Origin: a virus
IMG/VR virus record: IMGVR_UViG_3300032180_000001
Coordinates: 96,001-160,000 of that record
Strand: one strand, 5' to 3'
DNA length: 64,000 nucleotides
The translations under genes were made by a program, and so were the position numbers. Of this stretch, positions 15,522-51,721 are shown piece after piece; within the stretch, counting starts at the first letter, position 1, and the number at the start of each line of letters is the position of its first letter. The notes beneath the pieces were generated by a model. The model did not search any database and was not told the origin of the DNA. It saw only the letters and a program-made list of their open reading frames with translations.

Positions 15522-15995
15522 GTGCTATCAGCACTCGCAGCAATTTTCATCACAGTCCAGCCCGGAGACACGCTGTCCGGCATCGCCGTCAGTCACGGTG
15601 TGTCACTTGCCGCGGTGGAGGCGGCCAACCCCCAGATCGAGAACTTCAACCTGATCTACGCGGGCAACCGGGTCGCCATTCCGAAAGGGGGCAGCTACCA
15701 GGCGCAGCCTCAGCCGACCTACCGCCAGCCATCGCAGGCCCCGTCAAACAGTTACGGCGTTGCGGGCACAGGCGGCGGTTCCCTGTCGGATGTCCCGGGC
15801 GTCCCGTCGTCGTTCGCAGCATGCGTGGCCCTGCGAGAGTCGGGTGACGGGTCGGGCAGCTCGAACATCTACGGGATCATCCCTGGGAGCGGATACAGCG
15901 TCGCAGGTGACTCGCTAGCGCAGCAGAAGGCGGTGTTCGCCCAGATCTATCAGAGGTATGGAGTGACAGCCTGGCAGCCCTGGGACGGATGTTAG
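15522..15995 (+). CDS. LysM plus minimal lysozyme-like (Rpf/transglycosylase-like) protein
   Basis: LysM: TVQPGDTLSGIAVSHGVSLAAVEAANPQIENFNLIYAGNRVAIP. C-terminal CVALRESG...NIYG...QQKAVF...YGVTAWQPWDGC with catalytic Glu and a flanking Cys pair. Confidence 0.8.
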   Translation: MLSALAAIFITVQPGDTLSGIAVSHGVSLAAVEAANPQIENFNLIYAGNRVAIPKGGSYQAQPQPTYRQPSQAPSNSYGVAGTGGGSLSDVPGVPSSFAACVALRESGDGSGSSNIYGIIPGSGYSVAGDSLAQQKAVFAQIYQRYGVTAWQPWDGC

Positions 15996-16432: not shown

Positions 16433-16819
16433 CTAGTGCGGATACAGAGCCTTGCAGTCCCGCGGAGCGTCCTTGGCGTTCACGATCGCGCGCAGCTCGG
16501 TTACCTCCGCTATTATCTTCGGCGTCAGCTTTGCTCCCTTCGGCGTCGCATCAGAGAAAAATGCGCCCCAGAGAAGTTTATCTTGCGCTCGTGCACTATT
16601 ATTTTCCACGCACTGACTGTACTGAACGACCGCTTCACCGCTGTTCCCGTGAATCTGCCCGATCGTCAGGAAAACAACGATGATCGACAGTGCTACATCC
16701 AGGCAGATGGAAACAGCCAGCATCAGCGCGGTCTTCTTGCTGGCTTTGCCTCGCTGCAACTGCCCGATCAGCCTCATCGCCGTGCTGATCAGGGCCTCAT
16801 CATCCTCTTCCGGCTTCAT
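16433..16819 (-). CDS. Single-TM membrane protein with external Cys pair (paralog A)
   Basis: TAMRLIGQLQRGKASKKTALMLAVSICLDVALSIIVVFL...QC...DC. Confidence 0.7.
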   Translation of the reverse strand: MKPEEDDEALISTAMRLIGQLQRGKASKKTALMLAVSICLDVALSIIVVFLTIGQIHGNSGEAVVQYSQCVENNSARAQDKLLWGAFFSDATPKGAKLTPKIIAEVTELRAIVNAKDAPRDCKALYPH

Positions 16820-17214
16820 CTCGTCCCCTGTCCGTATACTTGCTGGCAGTCCACAGGAATATAAAGAGCTTCAACTACTTTCAGGAAAGATTTACCGAGC
16901 GCGTTACTATGAAAATCCTCAGTATTCAGTATCCACAGACTAACAAACTCCTGCTGAGTAGCATTGCTCTCATTGCAAATGGTCAGCTCCTGTGAGCGAA
17001 GTCGGTTTTCCTGATCAACAAGTCCGGAATTACTGTGCGACAACCCGACCCCGAGAAGTATCACCACAATGGAAAGCGTGACATCCAGAAAAATAGAAAT
17101 AGCGAGCAACAGCACAGTTTTCTTGCTGGCCTTCGTCCGCTGAAGTTTCTTTATCAACTCCATCGCAGTGCCGATCAGAACATCATCGGCGGGTTCCTCA
17201 GTTCTGTCCGGCAT
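16816..17214 (-). CDS. Single-TM membrane protein with external Cys pair (paralog B)
   Basis: TAMELIKKLQRTKASKKTVLLLAISIFLDVTLSIVVILL...IC...DC; RBS aggag before ATG 17214. Confidence 0.7.
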   Translation of the reverse strand: MPDRTEEPADDVLIGTAMELIKKLQRTKASKKTVLLLAISIFLDVTLSIVVILLGVGLSHSNSGLVDQENRLRSQELTICNESNATQQEFVSLWILNTEDFHSNALGKSFLKVVEALYIPVDCQQVYGQGTR

Positions 17215-17419
17215 CCGATCGCTCCTGCTCGATAACGCGCAGCATAATAGCCGCTGCCATCTTATCCCGATTCGGTTTCTTCGCATCCTCGCGAATCGAG
17301 ACCAGCAAGCTAATAAGCCGCAGCATATCTCCGTTCGTCAGTCGTCCTTCCTGATACCCTTCGAGCAGGCGATCAAGATCAGCCTTATCCGAATTAAGCT
17401 CGTCCACGATCACCGCCAT
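17198..17419 (-). CDS. Small helical protein, LDxLLE..AAAIMLR family, copy 3
   Basis: KADLDRLLEGYQEG...DKMAAAIMLRVIEQE; TAATG overlap with the upstream gene. Confidence 0.65.
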   Translation of the reverse strand: MAVIVDELNSDKADLDRLLEGYQEGRLTNGDMLRLISLLVSIREDAKKPNRDKMAAAIMLRVIEQERSDAGQN

Positions 17420-18264
17420 TATTTCCGCCCCAGCCGCAGGTACCACATCCGTGCGGACATCTCCCTCTCCGGAGCGAGAAAGGCTAGCGCCCAGGTGCCG
17501 AACCAGATAAACCAGCCCGCATCCCCAACGGACGGCTGACTCCAGCTCCAGTGCAGGATGGCATACGCGAACAGCGAATCAGAGGCCAGTAGCCCCAGTG
17601 CGCCGATGCTAATCAGCCAGAAGGAATTCGACACCCTCGTTCCGTGACGAAAATGCCGCATGGCCAGAACGATGGTGACCAGCGCGCAGATCTGCAGCAG
17701 CAGTAGAATGTCCGCCGTCGGATAGGCGATGGATACTACCTTGGCGATGGTCGAGGCGCCACTGGCATGCGCGTTAGGACTGATGAGGAGAGGCCAGGAG
17801 AACAGCCCGAAAGTAAGACCTGTTACCGCCACTGCCACCGCTGCGGCACGCCGGTTCACGTGGATGTTGCCGCCGCTGGCCAGCATCACCAGTCCGGCCA
17901 CGAAAAATACGTAGCTGCTCAGTTCCAGCGCGTCGGACAGCCCTGGATAAGGCACGCTGTCCGTGATCTTCGTGTAAGCGAGAGCCGTTCCAGCGCCCAG
18001 CAAGTTCAACGCCATCCCGACGAGCAGTAGCAGCCAGGCGAACTTCCGCCGACTGGGATTAAGCACGACGCCGAGGATCATCCCCGCTACGGCCAGTCCC
18101 AGAACCGGCATGAACCCCACCGTGATCCAGCCAGGCACTTTCGGCTGAATGTAGTAGGCGACGATGACCGCGATGTAGCCGAGAAGGAACAGCGCCTGCG
18201 CCTGGCTCAGGAAACCGGGCCAGGGCGCAGCTGGCTTTCCGGTGTCCGATGCTGAAATAGCCAT
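17419..18264 (-). CDS. Multi-pass membrane sensor-like protein with no cytoplasmic output domain
   Basis: About 8 hydrophobic helices with PYPGLSDALEL, SIAYPTADILLL, LLASDSLFAY and DAGWFIWF motifs, resembling the N-terminal TM input region of actinobacterial GGDEF/EAL proteins. Confidence 0.7.
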   Translation of the reverse strand: MAISASDTGKPAAPWPGFLSQAQALFLLGYIAVIVAYYIQPKVPGWITVGFMPVLGLAVAGMILGVVLNPSRRKFAWLLLLVGMALNLLGAGTALAYTKITDSVPYPGLSDALELSSYVFFVAGLVMLASGGNIHVNRRAAAVAVAVTGLTFGLFSWPLLISPNAHASGASTIAKVVSIAYPTADILLLLQICALVTIVLAMRHFRHGTRVSNSFWLISIGALGLLASDSLFAYAILHWSWSQPSVGDAGWFIWFGTWALAFLAPEREMSARMWYLRLGRK

Positions 18265-18530
18265 TACGATTCTCCATTCGCTTCCGGAACTACTCTTCTG
18301 GTGATCTGAACAACACGGCAGGGTGCCCCGCGGCAGGCTCTGGCGAGCTGTTTCGCCTCATCAAGCGTCAGCGGCCCCGTCAGTGAGAACCCGAGAAACG
18401 ATCTCACCTCGAACCCGGCTCCTCGCCACGCACCGAGAAGAAACCACTCGACATCATATTCTTCAGCCCAGCCAGCATCCGGCTCGATCTCGCGATCATC
18501 TGAACTGTCGTCTTCTCTCCATGCCTCCAT
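18264..18530 (-). CDS. Hypothetical protein
   Basis: 88 aa, translationally coupled within the operon. Confidence 0.5.
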   Translation of the reverse strand: MEAWREDDSSDDREIEPDAGWAEEYDVEWFLLGAWRGAGFEVRSFLGFSLTGPLTLDEAKQLARACRGAPCRVVQITRRVVPEANGES

Positions 18531-18555
18531 TGCGCACCTCCCCGCAGTTCTCTGC

Positions 18556-18771
18556 CTAGCTCAGCCATTTTTCCGTCTTCGCCTGCTCGATGAAACGTAG
18601 CATGATCGCCGCCGCAACCCTGTCCCCAGCGATAAAATCTTCTGCCACGCCGTTCATGATCCGCAGGAGCAGTCCTTTCAGCTCTTCCGTCTCCACAGGT
18701 ATCAGCTCGTCCCGGCCGAATTTCTCTAGCAAAGTATCCAGGCGCAGACGACTCGACGGGATAGCTGTCAC
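18556..18771 (-). CDS. Small helical protein, LDxLLE..AAAIMLR family, copy 2
   Basis: RLRLDTLLEKFG...DRVAAAIMLRFIEQ. Confidence 0.65.
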   Translation of the reverse strand: MTAIPSSRLRLDTLLEKFGRDELIPVETEELKGLLLRIMNGVAEDFIAGDRVAAAIMLRFIEQAKTEKWLS

Positions 18772-19268
18772 GACGAACCTGACTCGTCCTGGAAAAACTC
18801 TCTGCGCCTGACGGCAGCAATAACATACAACCCTCGCTCTGTCGGAATAGGGGCCAGTGTTATATCGACAGGAAGTTCCTGACCGCTCTTCGTCAGTAGC
18901 GAAAGAGCGAGGCCCGTGCCCATCGGGCGAATTACCGGGTTAGTCAGGTAAGCTTTCCGATGCGCCGCGTGCCCAGACCTCAGAACACTAGGTACCAGCA
19001 TATCTATCGACTCTCCGCGCAGTTGTGATCGGTAATAACCAGTCAGCAGCTCCATCTGACGGTTAACCAGGAAAATTTTTCCGGTCTCTCCCTCGACAAT
19101 GGTAATAGCATCCGGAAAATCATCGAATATCTTGATAGTCAGATCAGCGACGAAAACTATGTCAGTGCGAGGAATCTCCGGACGCAGCAGGAGATGCAGT
19201 ACAGGCACAACATACGTTTCAACCGAATTATCCGCCAATTCACTGCCTCCCTGTTCACTATTTGTCAT
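18768..19268 (-). CDS. Stand-alone PAS domain protein
   Basis: IFDDFPDAITIVEGETGKIFLVNRQMELLTGYYRSQLRGESIDMLVP...MG.GL.L..TKSGQELPVDITLAP. Confidence 0.9.
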   Translation of the reverse strand: MTNSEQGGSELADNSVETYVVPVLHLLLRPEIPRTDIVFVADLTIKIFDDFPDAITIVEGETGKIFLVNRQMELLTGYYRSQLRGESIDMLVPSVLRSGHAAHRKAYLTNPVIRPMGTGLALSLLTKSGQELPVDITLAPIPTERGLYVIAAVRRREFFQDESGSS

Positions 19269-19720
19269 GGCGAACCTGGCTTACCTGACGGACCATTTCG
19301 AGGCTCCCTGCGCCGAAGCGTAGCGATGACGAACAGGCCGTGCATTGTTGAAACGGGAGCGAGCATGATGTCCACCGGAACCTCCCGCCCGCTCTTCGTC
19401 TGAATCGAAAGATTGAGGTTGGCGCCCATCTGCCGGACCTTAGGATCAACCATGTACCCGGTTCGGTGCTCGAGATGCCGCGGACGGCGCTCTTGCGGCA
19501 CGAGCATGTCCACCGTCTGGTTGCGCAACTCGCTACGGTGATAGCCGGTCAGGAACTCAGCCTGGTCATTGACGAGCCGGATCCGGCCGGTTTCCCCGTG
19601 CACGATGATGATCGCATCCGGTGACTGCTGGAAAATCTGAACAGCCAGGTCGGCGGTGAAGCGGATATCTTCGGCGATCTGACCGATTCCGCGCTCGTCC
19701 TGGTAACTCTCTGTGCTCAC
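19265..19720 (-). CDS. Stand-alone PAS domain protein (paralog)
   Basis: IFQQSPDAIIIVHGETGRIRLVNDQAEFLTGYHRSELRNQTVDMLVP...TKSGREVPVDIMLAP. Confidence 0.9.
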   Translation of the reverse strand: MSTESYQDERGIGQIAEDIRFTADLAVQIFQQSPDAIIIVHGETGRIRLVNDQAEFLTGYHRSELRNQTVDMLVPQERRPRHLEHRTGYMVDPKVRQMGANLNLSIQTKSGREVPVDIMLAPVSTMHGLFVIATLRRREPRNGPSGKPGSP

Positions 19721-20395
19721 TTAAGTCTCGCCTTCTAGTACCCGGAGAATAATAACTGCTGCGATCCGGTTCCCCGTCGGTGCCTCCCGACTGTCCAGAA
19801 TCTCCCGGAGCATATCGGCTAGCGCCGCTTTCTCATTCGACGTAATGATCTGCGCCTGGTACCTTTCTAGCAAATTGTCCAGCTCCGGCGTATGCGGGCT
19901 GTGCAGAATGCGCGCGGCGTCATAGGCGACGTTCTTCCAGAACACGTCGATCTTGGTTTCCAGCACGCCAGTCCGGTCAGCAACCGTGCTCAGCCGGTCA
20001 GTAACTGACTGAAGCGAGGGCACGACCCGCCGGTTGATCTCGTCGACCTTGCCTTCCAGCGCTCCGGTTCGGTCAGAAACGAGATTGAGCTTGTCTGTTG
20101 CCGCAAGGAGTGCCGGAGCGACCCGGCTATTAATGTCGGCGATGTCCCGCTCGTTCTTCTCGATTTTGCTGATAAAGCCCTCTACCGAACTAGCCACTAC
20201 ATCCTTTGCGATGCCCTGTATCTGGGCAACACGATCCTTAGAGCTATCCCTTCTCCGAGAGTACAGAAAAGAGATAACAGCGACAAGAACAGCAGCTATC
20301 GCAGAAAGTATCGTGAGGATCTCGTAAAAAGCTACACCGCCGGACGAAGAAGATGCTGCCGCATCAGCCACCGTCAGTATCAGACCGCCTGCCAC
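19721..20395 (-). CDS. TM plus coiled-coil protein ending in LDxLLE..AAxIxLR domain (copy 1)
   Basis: One TM helix, heptad repeats, then HSPHTPELDNLLERY...NRIAAVIILRVLE. The start at GTG 20395 follows an RBS and the leader hairpin. Confidence 0.7.
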   Translation of the reverse strand: MAGGLILTVADAAASSSSGGVAFYEILTILSAIAAVLVAVISFLYSRRRDSSKDRVAQIQGIAKDVVASSVEGFISKIEKNERDIADINSRVAPALLAATDKLNLVSDRTGALEGKVDEINRRVVPSLQSVTDRLSTVADRTGVLETKIDVFWKNVAYDAARILHSPHTPELDNLLERYQAQIITSNEKAALADMLREILDSREAPTGNRIAAVIILRVLEGET

Positions 20396-20420
20396 GCCCA
20401 GATTCCCTTCGCTCGCAAGG

Positions 20421-20444
20421 GACCGGCTCCAGCAGGCCGCGGTC
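20421..20444 (-). promoter_or_regulatory. Conserved late-leader hairpin copy
   Basis: GACCG-CGG-CC-ugcu-GG-AGC-CGGUC downstream of TACGCT. Confidence 0.7.
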
Positions 20445-20631
20445 ATATACGCTTAGCGTAGCGTACCTGTCTAGTACAGTCTAAGCCTCGCTCGCGGGGG
20501 ATGATCCTTCCGGCGGAACGGTGAAATCGCGGTCACGTACCCAGCCCTGCCGTTCGAGGAGGACGGCCATCTCCTCGCTTACCACCGGCTTCGCGTGCAC
20601 CGGCCCGTCCCGGAAGTCCATGCCTGGCAGT

Positions 20632-21712
20632 TTACAGGTCGTCTAGCGCCCGCAGCAGCTTCCTGGCGTTCGCTTCGAAAGTTCTGTCGGCAACAGCTTC
20701 CCGCGCCTGCTCCGCTATCTTGCCCCGTTCTGCCTCGTGCGTGATATACCAGTGCAGGATTTCGCTGGCATCTTCCGGGTCGGTGAACCGCGGCAGCATG
20801 TGCAGCACTTCGTCTCCTTCCGGGCGCGCGTCCCGAAGGAAGGGCAATCCGATGGCCGCCATCTCTACCTCGCGCGGCCCCATGGCCCAGCCCTGGCCAG
20901 CGTAGGCGTCTTCGGACTCACGCCGGTACAGATTGATCCCCATCTTTGCGTGCCGGTACAGCTCCGCCGTTTCCGTGTTGTCCACACAGGTATCGCGACC
21001 GTGCCCGATATACTTCCGCAGCCTGCTGTCCGGTGCCAGCTCCTCGTCCCAGTAATTGCCGCCAAGCAGCACGTCGAGGTTCCCCAGATCGAGGCGCTCG
21101 AAAAACTCGGCACGGCTCTTGAAGCAGGTTCCGATGAAGGTCAGATCGGCAGCCAGCTCCGGGTTCACCGGCCCGCGCCGAGGGTAGTGCACGTCCGGGC
21201 GGTACGCGTGCGGCATGTACAGCGCCGGGCCAAGTTCCCGGTACGCAGCGATATTAACTGGATCGTTGAGGAGGTTCAGGTCAGCATGCTGAGCCCGGTC
21301 CAGTTGCTCTCCGTCCTGATAAGTAAGGCGATTCTGTATGAAGGATCACTTGCTTCATTTTCCGTAGCTTGAAAAGCTGGAACATGCCCCCGGTAATAAA
21401 GAACCCGGACACGTACAGAATAACGTCAGGCCAGAAAGTCATCGCCGCGTGGGTCAGCCCCTGCATCGACATGACGATGGCGTCCTTTTGACTCTTCACG
21501 GCCTGCTCGACGACAGGAAGCCCCTGTTCGTCCGTCACAATGTTGCCATGCTCATCTGTTTTCGGAAGAAGAGCCTTGGAATAAAACACGAGCCGATCGT
21601 TCAGGTTATACATAAGGACCTCATTGCCCAGCTCGCGCAATGCATCAGCCCATCCGTAGTAAACATCAGCAACCGAGAAGTCCGGGCCGGGGTGACATAT
21701 CAGAATACGCAC
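20632..21712 (-). CDS. CgeB/GT-B-like glycosyltransferase split by a +4 nt discontinuity at a UUA codon (21325-21319)
   Basis: The N-part (MRILICHPGPDFSVADVY...HTESPY) and C-part (QDGEQLDRAQHADLNLLND...DLTFIGTCFKSR...MGPREVEMAAIGLPF) are in different frames, joined at CCT TAC T TAT CAG. Confidence 0.8.
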
Positions 21713-21821
21713 AAAACCACCTCCTCCCGATGACACACTCGAAATTTTATGGTACGATTTATTCGGCTCGGTAGCACCGGTCAGGGGTACTTCCGAGCCT
21801 GATCGCATCGGAGGTGCGACT

Positions 21822-49943: not shown

Positions 49944-50789
49944 TTAACTAATCCTACCCTCAAATGACTGTTCTGTCATTGAGAGCCTTTCATCGAGAAG
50001 CGACATAGCATAAATATCATACTCGTCTAGATCAAAATCAAAGATACTAATATTCTCCTGAAGCCGTTCAAATGTACCTGTCTTCGGAATCACCGAATTA
50101 CCAAGCTGCAAACTCCAACGCAGTACTATTTGTGCTGGGGACCGCCCATACTTGCTCGCAATAGAAACTAGTATCGGCGAATCAAGATTCTTTCTTCCCC
50201 GACCAAGCGGACCCCATGCCTGGGTAATAATATCAAACCTATTATGAAAAGTTCGTTGCGCAGCCTGGGGACACCAAGGATTTAGCTGTATCTGATTCAC
50301 GGAAGGCGGAGTAGAAGCATAACTAAGAAGACAGGTAAGATCATCAAACTTAAAGTTAGAAACACCGATACTCCGGCATCTGCCATCATTCAGAAGCCGT
50401 TCAAACGCCCGCCACGCTCCCTTGGTCAACGCTACCTCCATCCTGGGCCAGTGCATCAAGTAGAGATCAATCACGTCAAAGCCAAGACGTATCATACTGG
50501 CATCGAATGCCCGAAGCGTAGAATCGTACCCGTCCGCAGCCCATACCTTACTCGTAACAAATAGCTCATCACGAGGAAGTCCCGATTCAGCAACAGCCCG
50601 ACCTATTCCCGCCTCATTGCGATACTGATCGCTCGTGTCGAACATTCGGTATCCGATATTTATAGCCTCGCCAACTATAAGTTGAGCCTGATCATCGGAC
50701 AATTTCCACGTACCTAGTCCAAAATTTGGCATAGCCCTACCAGAGTTAAGTTGGACTGTCGGAACCACCGTTACTGTCATCCCAGCCAC
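49944..50789 (-). CDS. Aldo/keto reductase (AKR5/DkgA-like)
   Basis: GLGTW...GYRMFDTSDQYRNE...LFVTSKVW...DLYLMHWP...IGVSNF...NQIQ...QIVLRW...VIPK. Confidence 0.95.
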   Translation of the reverse strand: MAGMTVTVVPTVQLNSGRAMPNFGLGTWKLSDDQAQLIVGEAINIGYRMFDTSDQYRNEAGIGRAVAESGLPRDELFVTSKVWAADGYDSTLRAFDASMIRLGFDVIDLYLMHWPRMEVALTKGAWRAFERLLNDGRCRSIGVSNFKFDDLTCLLSYASTPPSVNQIQLNPWCPQAAQRTFHNRFDIITQAWGPLGRGRKNLDSPILVSIASKYGRSPAQIVLRWSLQLGNSVIPKTGTFERLQENISIFDFDLDEYDIYAMSLLDERLSMTEQSFEGRIS

Positions 50790-51721
50790 GTGCCTTCACT
50801 ATCAAATCTTGACACGTAACCTAGCGTCTCCTTCATTCCATCGTCCAGGCTTTTCTCCGGTCGCCATCCCATCTTCCACAGCCGGTCACTATCAAGCATC
50901 TTACGCAGCGTAATCTGACTATCCGGGAGAATCTCAGTCAGCGACGATCTACAGCCTGGAACGAGGGCCATGCACCGACTGGCCAGCTCCCCCGTAGTGA
51001 TATGCTGGTCATTCCGGTTAACGTTCCATACCCCAGATAGTCCTGATTCTACAATCAAGGCCAGTCCTCGGCAAGTATCACCCACATACGTAAAACAGCG
51101 CATACAACCCTTATGAACGATAATTGGCAGACCATGATGCGCCTGCCAGAGCATAGTATGCAAAGCGTTGTACCCGATAACCCCCGTGCGCCCGGAAAAA
51201 CGCGGCACCGTACCAGGCAGCGGCAGAACAGCGGCTGGACCGTAGGGCATGTTCAATCGAGTAATCATCAGCCCATCGGGGGCATACAACCGACACGCTT
51301 CTTCTCCCCACTTCTTGGACAACCCATACATATTCAGCGGCTCTAGCGGCATGGACGTCAGAATATCTCCCCGCTGATCAGTGGTTTTACCATACACCTC
51401 AGACGATGACATAAACATGAGCCTAGCCCCCGTCTCCGCAGTATCCCGAGCTAGCTCAGCAGTCAGTCCAACATTAGCCTTCACCGTAAGCTGCAGATTC
51501 TTTTCACCCCACACACGCCCGTACAAAGCAGCAAGATGAATCACAACATCTGGACGCGCGTAAGCCAGCCAGCTTCGCCGAGCATCATCATCATGCAAAT
51601 CAAACAGCATATCCGCCCCCGCTTGAATATCCTGCCCGAACACCTCGTGACCGCGTTCAGCAAAAGTTTTCACTAGCCAGCCACCGATATATCCAGCCGC
51701 ACCAGTTATCGCGATCCTCAT
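50777..51721 (-). CDS. NAD-dependent epimerase/dehydratase (extended SDR)
   Basis: IAITGAAGYIG...SSSEVYG...YGLSK...NMPYGP...RCFTYVGD. Confidence 0.92.
   Translation of the reverse strand: MRIAITGAAGYIGGWLVKTFAERGHEVFGQDIQAGADMLFDLHDDDARRSWLAYARPDVVIHLAALYGRVWGEKNLQLTVKANVGLTAELARDTAETGARLMFMSSSEVYGKTTDQRGDILTSMPLEPLNMYGLSKKWGEEACRLYAPDGLMITRLNMPYGPAAVLPLPGTVPRFSGRTGVIGYNALHTMLWQAHHGLPIIVHKGCMRCFTYVGDTCRGLALIVESGLSGVWNVNRNDQHITTGELASRCMALVPGCRSSLTEILPDSQITLRKMLDSDRLWKMGWRPEKSLDDGMKETLGYVSRFDSEGTWLG

Follow-up and report, generated by a model that had tools for sequence, protein, structure and literature searches.

What could a virus do with the sensory parts of a signalling system and no signalling enzyme to go with them? 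This question is raised by an uncultured soil phage and its cassette of nine head-to-tail minus-strand open reading frames (ORFs), which lies at 16433-20446 of a 64,000-nt stretch (the window, whose positions are used throughout unless another contig is named) corresponding to bases 96001-160000 of a 184,980-bp IMG/VR virus record. The cassette encodes two stand-alone PAS proteins (PAS1 and PAS2), a protein with eight transmembrane (TM) helices (TM281), and several proteins of phage families, among them g241, which ends in a small helical domain that we call the X domain, and the single-pass membrane protein g128. We favor, with evenly balanced confidence, the reading that this is a phage-owned modular sensor, in which haem-type PAS proteins and the 8-TM protein would act, through X-domain contacts, on a g241/g128 membrane pair, a kinase and a receiver being an optional relay found in a sister lineage.

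A cassette of sensory proteins in a record without kinase or cyclase domains

The nine genes of the cassette, in the order of their reading direction, are the following.

19721-20446, minus strand: g241, 241 aa, first gene of the cassette, conserved
19265-19720, minus strand: PAS1, 151 aa
18768-19268, minus strand: PAS2, 166 aa
18556-18771, minus strand: g71, 71 aa
18264-18530, minus strand: g88, 88 aa
17419-18264, minus strand: TM281, 281 aa
17198-17446, minus strand: g82, 82 aa
16816-17286 (16816-17214 from Met25), minus strand: g156, 156 aa
16433-16819, minus strand: g128, 128 aa, last gene of the cassette

Translational coupling along the cassette is plausible because its stop and start codons overlap or abut, the junctions being TAA-GTG, ATGA, GTGA, a 25-nt gap with a GGGAGG site, and TAATG. 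The sequence CAGGTTCGyCrTGA recurs at the PAS1/PAS2 and PAS2/g71 junctions, as would fit a tandem duplication of the PAS gene. Two genes probably start inside their listed frames: g82 at Met10 (17419), where its start overlaps the TM281 stop as TAATG, and g156 at Met25 (17214), both TTA codons of the g156 frame lying upstream of this methionine. An earlier note on this DNA had described a translationally coupled operon with its own leader hairpin, extending over 17419-19720; the coupling is plausible and the genes are where they had been placed, but the unit runs from 16433 to 20446, and the putative hairpin upstream of 20446 (-21 kcal/mol) does not stand out from chance, with z = -1.2 and 21 of 200 shuffles equally good. 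No sigma-70-like promoter was found upstream of g241.

We searched all six frames of the whole 184,980-bp record for signalling domains, with positive controls, finding no match at E <= 10 to HATPase_c (PF02518), HisKA (PF00512), receiver (PF00072), GGDEF (PF00990), or EAL (PF00563). PAS1 and PAS2 account for all PAS domains of the record, and no link between the cassette and cyclic diguanylate (c-di-GMP) was found. Nor did any of our analyses tie the cassette to the UUA/TTA recoding of this phage. Inside the cassette, where the largest gap between genes is 25 nt, there is no space for a missed ORF. The absence of GGDEF, EAL, HisKA, and HATPase domains that had been noticed at this locus thus extends to the entire record.

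A sister lineage has the same parts together with its own kinase

Two soil contigs, L003 and L004, contain separate overlapping genes for a g241-like protein, a PAS protein, an 8-TM protein, a PAS-PAS protein, a 333-aa HisKA-HATPase_c kinase, and a receiver. Their PAS protein is 58% identical to PAS1, and the 8-TM protein of L004 is 62% identical to TM281. L101, a 21-kb contig that is 99.8% identical to L003/L004, continues beyond its receiver-only regulator, which lacks an output domain, with g82-like (60%), g156-like (63%), and g128-like (56%) genes, and then with a gene whose product is 73% identical in amino-acid sequence to that of window 50777-51721. The frame g241 ... g82-g156-g128 is common to L101 and this phage, and the interior alone differs; L003, L004, and L101 also have several genes in common with this genome. 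The resemblance of L004 and L101 to classical two-component systems, including split or accessory-sensor types with a sensor-less kinase, lies in the HisKA-HATPase_c kinase and receiver that stand in line with PAS and 8-TM genes. They differ from such systems in encoding each domain on its own polypeptide and in having a regulator without an output domain, and the phage studied here differs further in having neither transmitter nor receiver. That a close relative has the same set with its own kinase and response regulator argues that the phage-borne sensing device is real. With PAS, 8-TM, PAS-PAS, HisKA-HATPase, and receiver laid out as five separate coupled genes in L004/L101, the term "disassembled sensory system", under which the locus had been described, is apt.

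Other relatives show how the parts can be arranged. L012, which has at least seven other genes in common with this phage, carries in order an X-only protein, an 8-TM protein (46% identical to TM281), a g241-like protein, a second X-only protein, and a PAS protein, in a different genomic neighborhood that lies ~4 kb from a holin homolog. Immediately upstream of this cassette copy, L012:6230-6895 encodes a 221-aa protein with no Pfam match on record, on inspection a possible secreted glycoside hydrolase. Seven more distant IMG/VR contigs (8-151 kb, GC 66-70%) have the core pair only, without sensors, a g241-like gene being followed by a g128-like gene, 4 nt apart in most of them. The PAS/8-TM insert is rare: IMG/VR scans with TM281, with an alignment of stand-alone 8-TM proteins, and with an alignment of phage PAS proteins found no further contigs with it, and the metagenome scan found L003 and L101 only.

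The sister cassette has features of its own. Before its HisKA domain, the L004 kinase starts with two tandem copies of a ~45-aa motif (QSAIINILDDA...EAEQ.F.ASLNILED; L004:2719-3050), which may be a docking site for separate input proteins. The kinase gene of L101 lacks 127 nt that are present in L004 (L101:9120-9185 versus L004:3171-3297), so that helix 2 of HisKA (DYLFRIRRAAVHMAELIDGLLSLSR...) is lost and the frame is shifted; a second difference, of 124 nt, lies at L003:4700-4823, and each of the two is either a real variant or an assembly artefact. At L101:6978-6982 (TTATG), the ATG with which the 8-TM gene starts overlaps a TTA codon of the preceding PAS frame, and another TTA stands at L101:11256-11258, just past the expected end of the g128-like gene, where the frame continues for ~60 more codons.

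PAS1 and PAS2 resemble haem-type PAS domains

In agreement with the earlier description of two paralogous stand-alone PAS proteins, PAS1 and PAS2 are 56% identical (E 2e-43), and both pass the cut-offs of PAS models. PAS1 matches Pfam PAS (PF00989) at E 1.8e-10 (41.2 bits against a cut-off of 22.6) and NCBIfam TIGR00229 at E 6.5e-15 (55.4 bits against 22.9), and PAS2 matches Pfam PAS_9 (PF13426) at E 1e-7 (32.5 bits against 27) and TIGR00229 with 45.5 bits (against 22.9). In the NCBIfam ranking, the DosP and FixL models come directly below the generic PAS model. All PDB sequence matches, 14 for PAS1 and 13 for PAS2, fall on FG214, DosP/YddU, or FixL, that is, on haem-PAS proteins only, which are the best and the only solved-structure relatives of the pair (E 3e-15 to 3e-5). 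FG214 (10JX) is matched at E 2.9e-15 by PAS1 and 2e-14 by PAS2, E. coli DosP/YddU at 1e-8 and 1e-6, respectively, and rhizobial FixL at 3.5e-5 by PAS1.

FG214 of Fimbriimonas ginsengisoli is a haem-b redox switch, with H156 as proximal ligand, H175 as distal ligand, and M172 close by (PDB 10JX/10JY; the numbering offset of the 10JX chain is 69). In HMMER alignments, PAS1 His82 and PAS2 His100 fall on FG214 H156 and on DosP His77, and this candidate proximal histidine is invariant in 35 of 35 collected PAS relatives. The methionine of a conserved RQMG/RPMG motif (PAS1 Met98, in the FG loop, and PAS2 Met116) aligns with FG214 M172 and is two residues off DosP Met95. These alignments suggest that PAS1 and PAS2 are haem-type PAS domains that would bind haem via His, possibly His/Met, ligation, and the sensed input is probably oxygen or redox state.

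FG214 also has a partner helical domain N-terminal to its PAS domain, an order that recurs in a metagenomic fusion protein, P0197. In contrast to FG214, DosP, and FixL, the phage PAS proteins are virus-encoded and stand alone, without a helix-turn-helix, kinase, GGDEF, or EAL domain. Their nearest multidomain relatives, at ~49% identity, are PAS-HisKA-HATPase kinases, PAS-GAF kinases, and sigma-54 activators from several phyla, indicating that this type of PAS is confined neither to c-di-GMP enzymes nor to actinobacteria.

TM281 is a free-standing relative of an actinobacterial input domain

The predicted structure of TM281 has eight TM helices (predicted local distance difference test score, pLDDT, 81; predicted template modelling score 0.80), and the protein matches no Pfam or NCBIfam family model. 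By homology it is connected to 1,579 representative protein clusters at E <= 1e-3, in which the matched part is the N-terminal domain of long signalling proteins, and 218 representative clusters align over residues ~25-268 at E <= 1e-10. Among 50 long matches, GGDEF is present in 30, PAS in 29, EAL in 26, and HATPase_c in 14, and these enzyme and PAS domains are always C-terminal to the matched region. GTDB genomes contain the TM281-type domain in at least 515 loci, and the 80 listed are almost all from Actinomycetota metagenome-assembled genomes (MAGs), many of them Solirubrobacterales and Gaiellales, bearing out the likeness to the input region of actinobacterial GGDEF/EAL proteins that the earlier note had seen.

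TM281 is thus homologous to the input domain of membrane-anchored GGDEF-EAL and histidine kinase (HK) sensors, mostly from Thermoleophilia, Acidimicrobiia, and other Actinomycetota MAGs. It aligns over the full 8-TM domain at ~30-37% identity (~35% to the cellular homologs sampled) and keeps the invariant W, PxP..D, AYPxxD, and D, the family-invariant residues that it has in common with cellular sensors being W77, P107, D111, Y181-P182, D185, D229, and G250. The difference lies at the C terminus, where TM281 stops right after helix 8, without a cytoplasmic PAS or enzyme domain. Members of the stand-alone 8-TM subfamily (254-302 aa), among those found, occur only in phage-like contigs and as unplaced metagenome proteins, and none was detected in GTDB genomes by the pattern used. 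The cellular loci with an 8-TM domain that we sampled contain no close relative of the phage PAS proteins. We rejected the idea of a recently disassembled host gene on two grounds: the ~35% identity and the absence of a close phage-PAS relative from cellular 8-TM loci.

No Foldseek match of the TM281 model to the PDB was found at E <= 0.001. Helices 2-8 superpose on the seven-helix (7TM) bundles of G-protein-coupled-receptor type with VIA-align Z 9-10.7, below the ~13 advised for helical bundles, and a root-mean-square deviation of 4-5 Å; at Z ~10, we take this likeness as a common helical arrangement.

A conserved membrane pair and the X domain

The first protein of the cassette, g241, consists of an N-terminal TM helix, a long coiled coil, and the C-terminal X domain; its AlphaFold model (pLDDT 82) has a single helix at 39-181, followed by helices at 187-197, 203-218, and 224-240, and gave no significant PDB fold match. 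We found 20 homologs of g241 besides itself, which occur, among other places, in L003/L101, L012, and seven IMG/VR phage contigs, and the only Pfam domain in the family is the PAS part of P0197. The X domain, with the motif VLETKIDVFWKNVAxDAAxILHSPH...ELDxLLE...AAxIxLRVIE, contains no cysteine and is present in three copies in the genome, all within the cassette: the C terminus of g241 and the proteins g71 and g82, which are free copies of its last two or three helices (E 1e-31 and 8e-38, respectively, with an X-domain hidden Markov model). In P0197, a 293-aa metagenome protein, a TM helix, the X domain, and a haem-type PAS domain are joined in one chain; from this fusion, by the Rosetta-stone argument, we infer that the X domain and PAS work together.

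The proteins at the other end, g156 and g128, are paralogs (E 2e-18), each with an N-terminal helix, basic residues, one TM helix, and a ~75-aa outside domain with two invariant cysteines of disulfide type. Reading topologies from the sequences by the positive-inside rule, we predict that g241 is N-out/C-in and that g128 and g156 are N-in/C-out; because basic residues follow the TM helix of g241, the X domain and PAS would both be cytoplasmic. In the ESM Atlas, the outside part of g128 has a weak likeness to the dimerization and histidine phosphotransfer hairpins of kinases (TM-score <= 0.54), which we rejected in view of the two invariant cysteines and predicted extracellular location of this domain. 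PADLOC gives a weak match (E 1e-6) of g241 residues 13-120, covering the TM helix and coiled coil, to the C-terminal part of LeoB, which is probably compositional. The remaining protein, g88, is an acidic/basic orphan whose gene has a strong GGGAGG ribosome-binding site; it has no family match in Pfam, PHROGs, NCBIfam, or PADLOC and no homolog in the related loci.

In five of the seven core-pair contigs (L094-L098), the pair lies directly after a phrog_19005 gene, and in L094 the order is LysM-transglycosylase, HNH, phrog_19005, g241-like, g128-like, HNH, phrog_36442, tail assembly chaperone, endonuclease VII, and tape measure. L094, L095, and L097 each have a homolog of the LysM protein that adjoins the cassette of this phage; it combines LysM and transglycosylase-like domains and is encoded upstream of the g241-like gene, at a distance of two genes. 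In the phage studied here, a phrog_19005 homolog (297 aa, with GCC...GGHC motifs; G000 79493-80386), for which we found no PDB sequence relative and could not confirm a peptidase character, stands directly before the holin gene (phrog_9752, E 2.4e-12; G000 79119-79490), and the two genes together span G000 79119-80386 (L102:1119-2386), ~16 kb before the window. The predicted C-terminus-inside topology of g241 does not fit an i-spanin, and neither g128 nor g156 has a PHROG holin or spanin match. Position alone hints that the g241/g128 pair may act on the envelope or in lysis, and the coupling to lysis timing suggested in the earlier note has this positional support.

A proposed phage-owned sensor and its alternatives

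If the cassette is a phage-owned sensor, the g241/g128 membrane pair would be its conserved working core, and one phage lineage would have gained sensory modules by insertion between the two genes. The PAS proteins would bind haem, report O2, redox state, or a gas, and dock on X domains, for which a natural TM-X-PAS fusion provides a precedent, while TM281 would contribute a membrane-derived signal. With no kinase in the cassette, the signal would pass to the membrane pair by direct protein-protein contacts, or, by a less likely route, be handed to a host kinase or cyclase; the pair itself would probably serve a late envelope-related step near lysis. A bolder version, which we regard as tentative and rather doubtful, is that this is the first virus-encoded gas/redox sensor. 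Haem-loaded PAS proteins, attached by a new helical adaptor to a membrane-anchored coiled coil, would work with a 7/8-TM receptor to follow both the oxygen/redox state and the membrane state of an infected actinobacterium. They would control a late event at the membrane, either the timing of lysis or another envelope step, with neither a kinase nor a second messenger involved, and in sister phages this input would be relayed by a split kinase and receiver of the phage itself.

Several observations weigh against the phage-owned sensor. In the alignments that suggest haem binding, the distal FG214 ligand H175 is replaced by Asn (PAS1) or Gly (PAS2), and neither protein has a clear counterpart of FixL Arg220. 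The X domain has no recognizable fold relative, its likenesses in the ESM Atlas being generic four-helix bundles (NuoF C terminus). The PHROG matches of g241 to lysis families are weak (Rz-like spanin, E 0.006; holin, E 0.075), and the cassette sits in the tail-gene region, in this phage as in L101, not beside the holin, the real holin gene being elsewhere. Finally, ~38 kb of the phage genome may lie outside the searched record, and a kinase could sit there.

This last point leads to a different explanation, that the system is a complete split two-component system whose kinase and regulator are encoded in the ~38 kb outside the record or whose kinase is a dedicated one of the host. The longest contig in the protein collection with the exact PAS1 and g241 proteins has 222,744 bp versus the 184,980 bp of the record, and the 333-aa kinase of L004, which is separate and sensor-less, must take its input from other polypeptides, so that action in trans is already the way of this family. 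However, the kinase and regulator genes of L101 are placed within the cassette, after the 8-TM/PAS-PAS genes and before the g82-like gene; the corresponding slot in this phage has no such genes, and PAS2, g71, and g88 stand between PAS1 and TM281. CheckV, moreover, rates the record 99% complete, and we consider a transmitter elsewhere quite unlikely. The presence of a kinase and regulator in L004 and their absence here could also mean that this phage once had the full kinase cassette, lost both genes, and retains leftovers that drift without function; the 127-nt frame-breaking HisKA deletion in L101, if real, shows that the kinase can be lost. Decay of this kind is hard to square with nine ORFs that are all intact, with coupled junctions, a duplicated PAS gene both copies of which have the invariant histidine and the family motifs, a TM281 that keeps all family-invariant residues, and orthologs at 46-62% identity that are open in three lineages, and we hold it to be very improbable.

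The proteins might instead be decoys, the stand-alone PAS and 8-TM proteins forming dead heterodimers with host GGDEF/EAL or kinase proteins and thereby blunting c-di-GMP or two-component signalling. PAS domains dimerise, actinobacterial GGDEF/EAL/HK proteins by the hundreds have the 8-TM domain as their input part, and no output domain is present in the record, all of which would suit such a role. FG214 forms a PAS-PAS dimer (10JX/10JY), and PIT4 of a Pseudomonas phage is a phage protein that interferes with host two-component systems (PMC10714779). On the other hand, the identity of TM281 to the cellular domains that we sampled is only ~35%, and no close PAS relative is present in those loci, the closest PAS relatives sitting with kinases and sigma-54 activators of several phyla and not with the 8-TM domain. 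The phage-specific partners (X domain and g128 family) are always present, and the cassette of the sister phage includes a kinase and a regulator of its own, pointing to signalling over blocking. We therefore consider decoys unlikely, and, of the two readings put forward in the earlier note, decoy or phage sensor, we favor the phage-owned sensor.

Virus-encoded sensing as such has precedents, and quorum sensing across bacteria and viruses has been reviewed (PMC7790227). Like the phage quorum-sensing receptors and the arbitrium systems of temperate phages, the cassette would give a virus its own sensor of the cell or its surroundings. Those systems, however, are soluble one-component receptors or transcription factors for peptides or autoinducers, whereas the cassette combines haem-type PAS proteins and a polytopic membrane sensor without DNA-binding or enzymatic output. 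Apart from the X domain and the g128 family, its domain types are all known already. The novelty lies in how they are put together: a virus encodes haem-type PAS proteins and a polytopic sensor as separate coupled polypeptides around a conserved phage membrane pair, and no enzymatic or DNA-binding output accompanies them. If the sensor reading is true, viruses could directly read the oxygen, redox, or membrane state of the host. The same cassette with kinase and regulator (L004) and without them (here) provides a natural comparison that makes enzyme-free input signalling directly testable. The cassette also defines three uncharacterized families, represented by the helical X domain, by single-pass proteins of the g128 type, and by the free-standing 8-TM sensor, and offers a first functional handle on the unnamed input domain of ~1,500 representative signalling-protein clusters, in genomes mostly of Actinomycetota.

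Genomic context

We compared the locus with 50,697 GenBank phage records, in which the cassette has no DNA match and PAS1, TM281, and g241 have no protein homologs; histidine-kinase matches in this collection are mainly to unannotated records or apparently mislabelled bacterial contigs. A literature search found no paper on a phage PAS/8-TM cassette, and no RNA run was found to contain the locus. The 184,980-bp record contains no tyrosine integrase, tRNA, or terminal repeat. The GC content is ~57-60%, and the window carries a head-tail adaptor, HNH, endonuclease VII, DUF932, and a LysM protein, that is, phage structural and homing-endonuclease genes, as well as a very long minus-strand ORF at its start. 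Two features of the ORF list border the cassette.

20481-20621, minus strand: 46-aa ORF, an uncertain gene, in the 185-nt gap upstream of g241
15522-15995, plus strand: LysM protein, convergent neighbor of the cassette, with a Pfam LysM match (E 4e-10) and PHROG transglycosylase/endolysin matches

Just upstream of the cassette, a glycosyltransferase is spread over two minus-strand ORFs, 20632-21216 and 21281-21808, with a Glyco_trans_1_2 match in the downstream half only.

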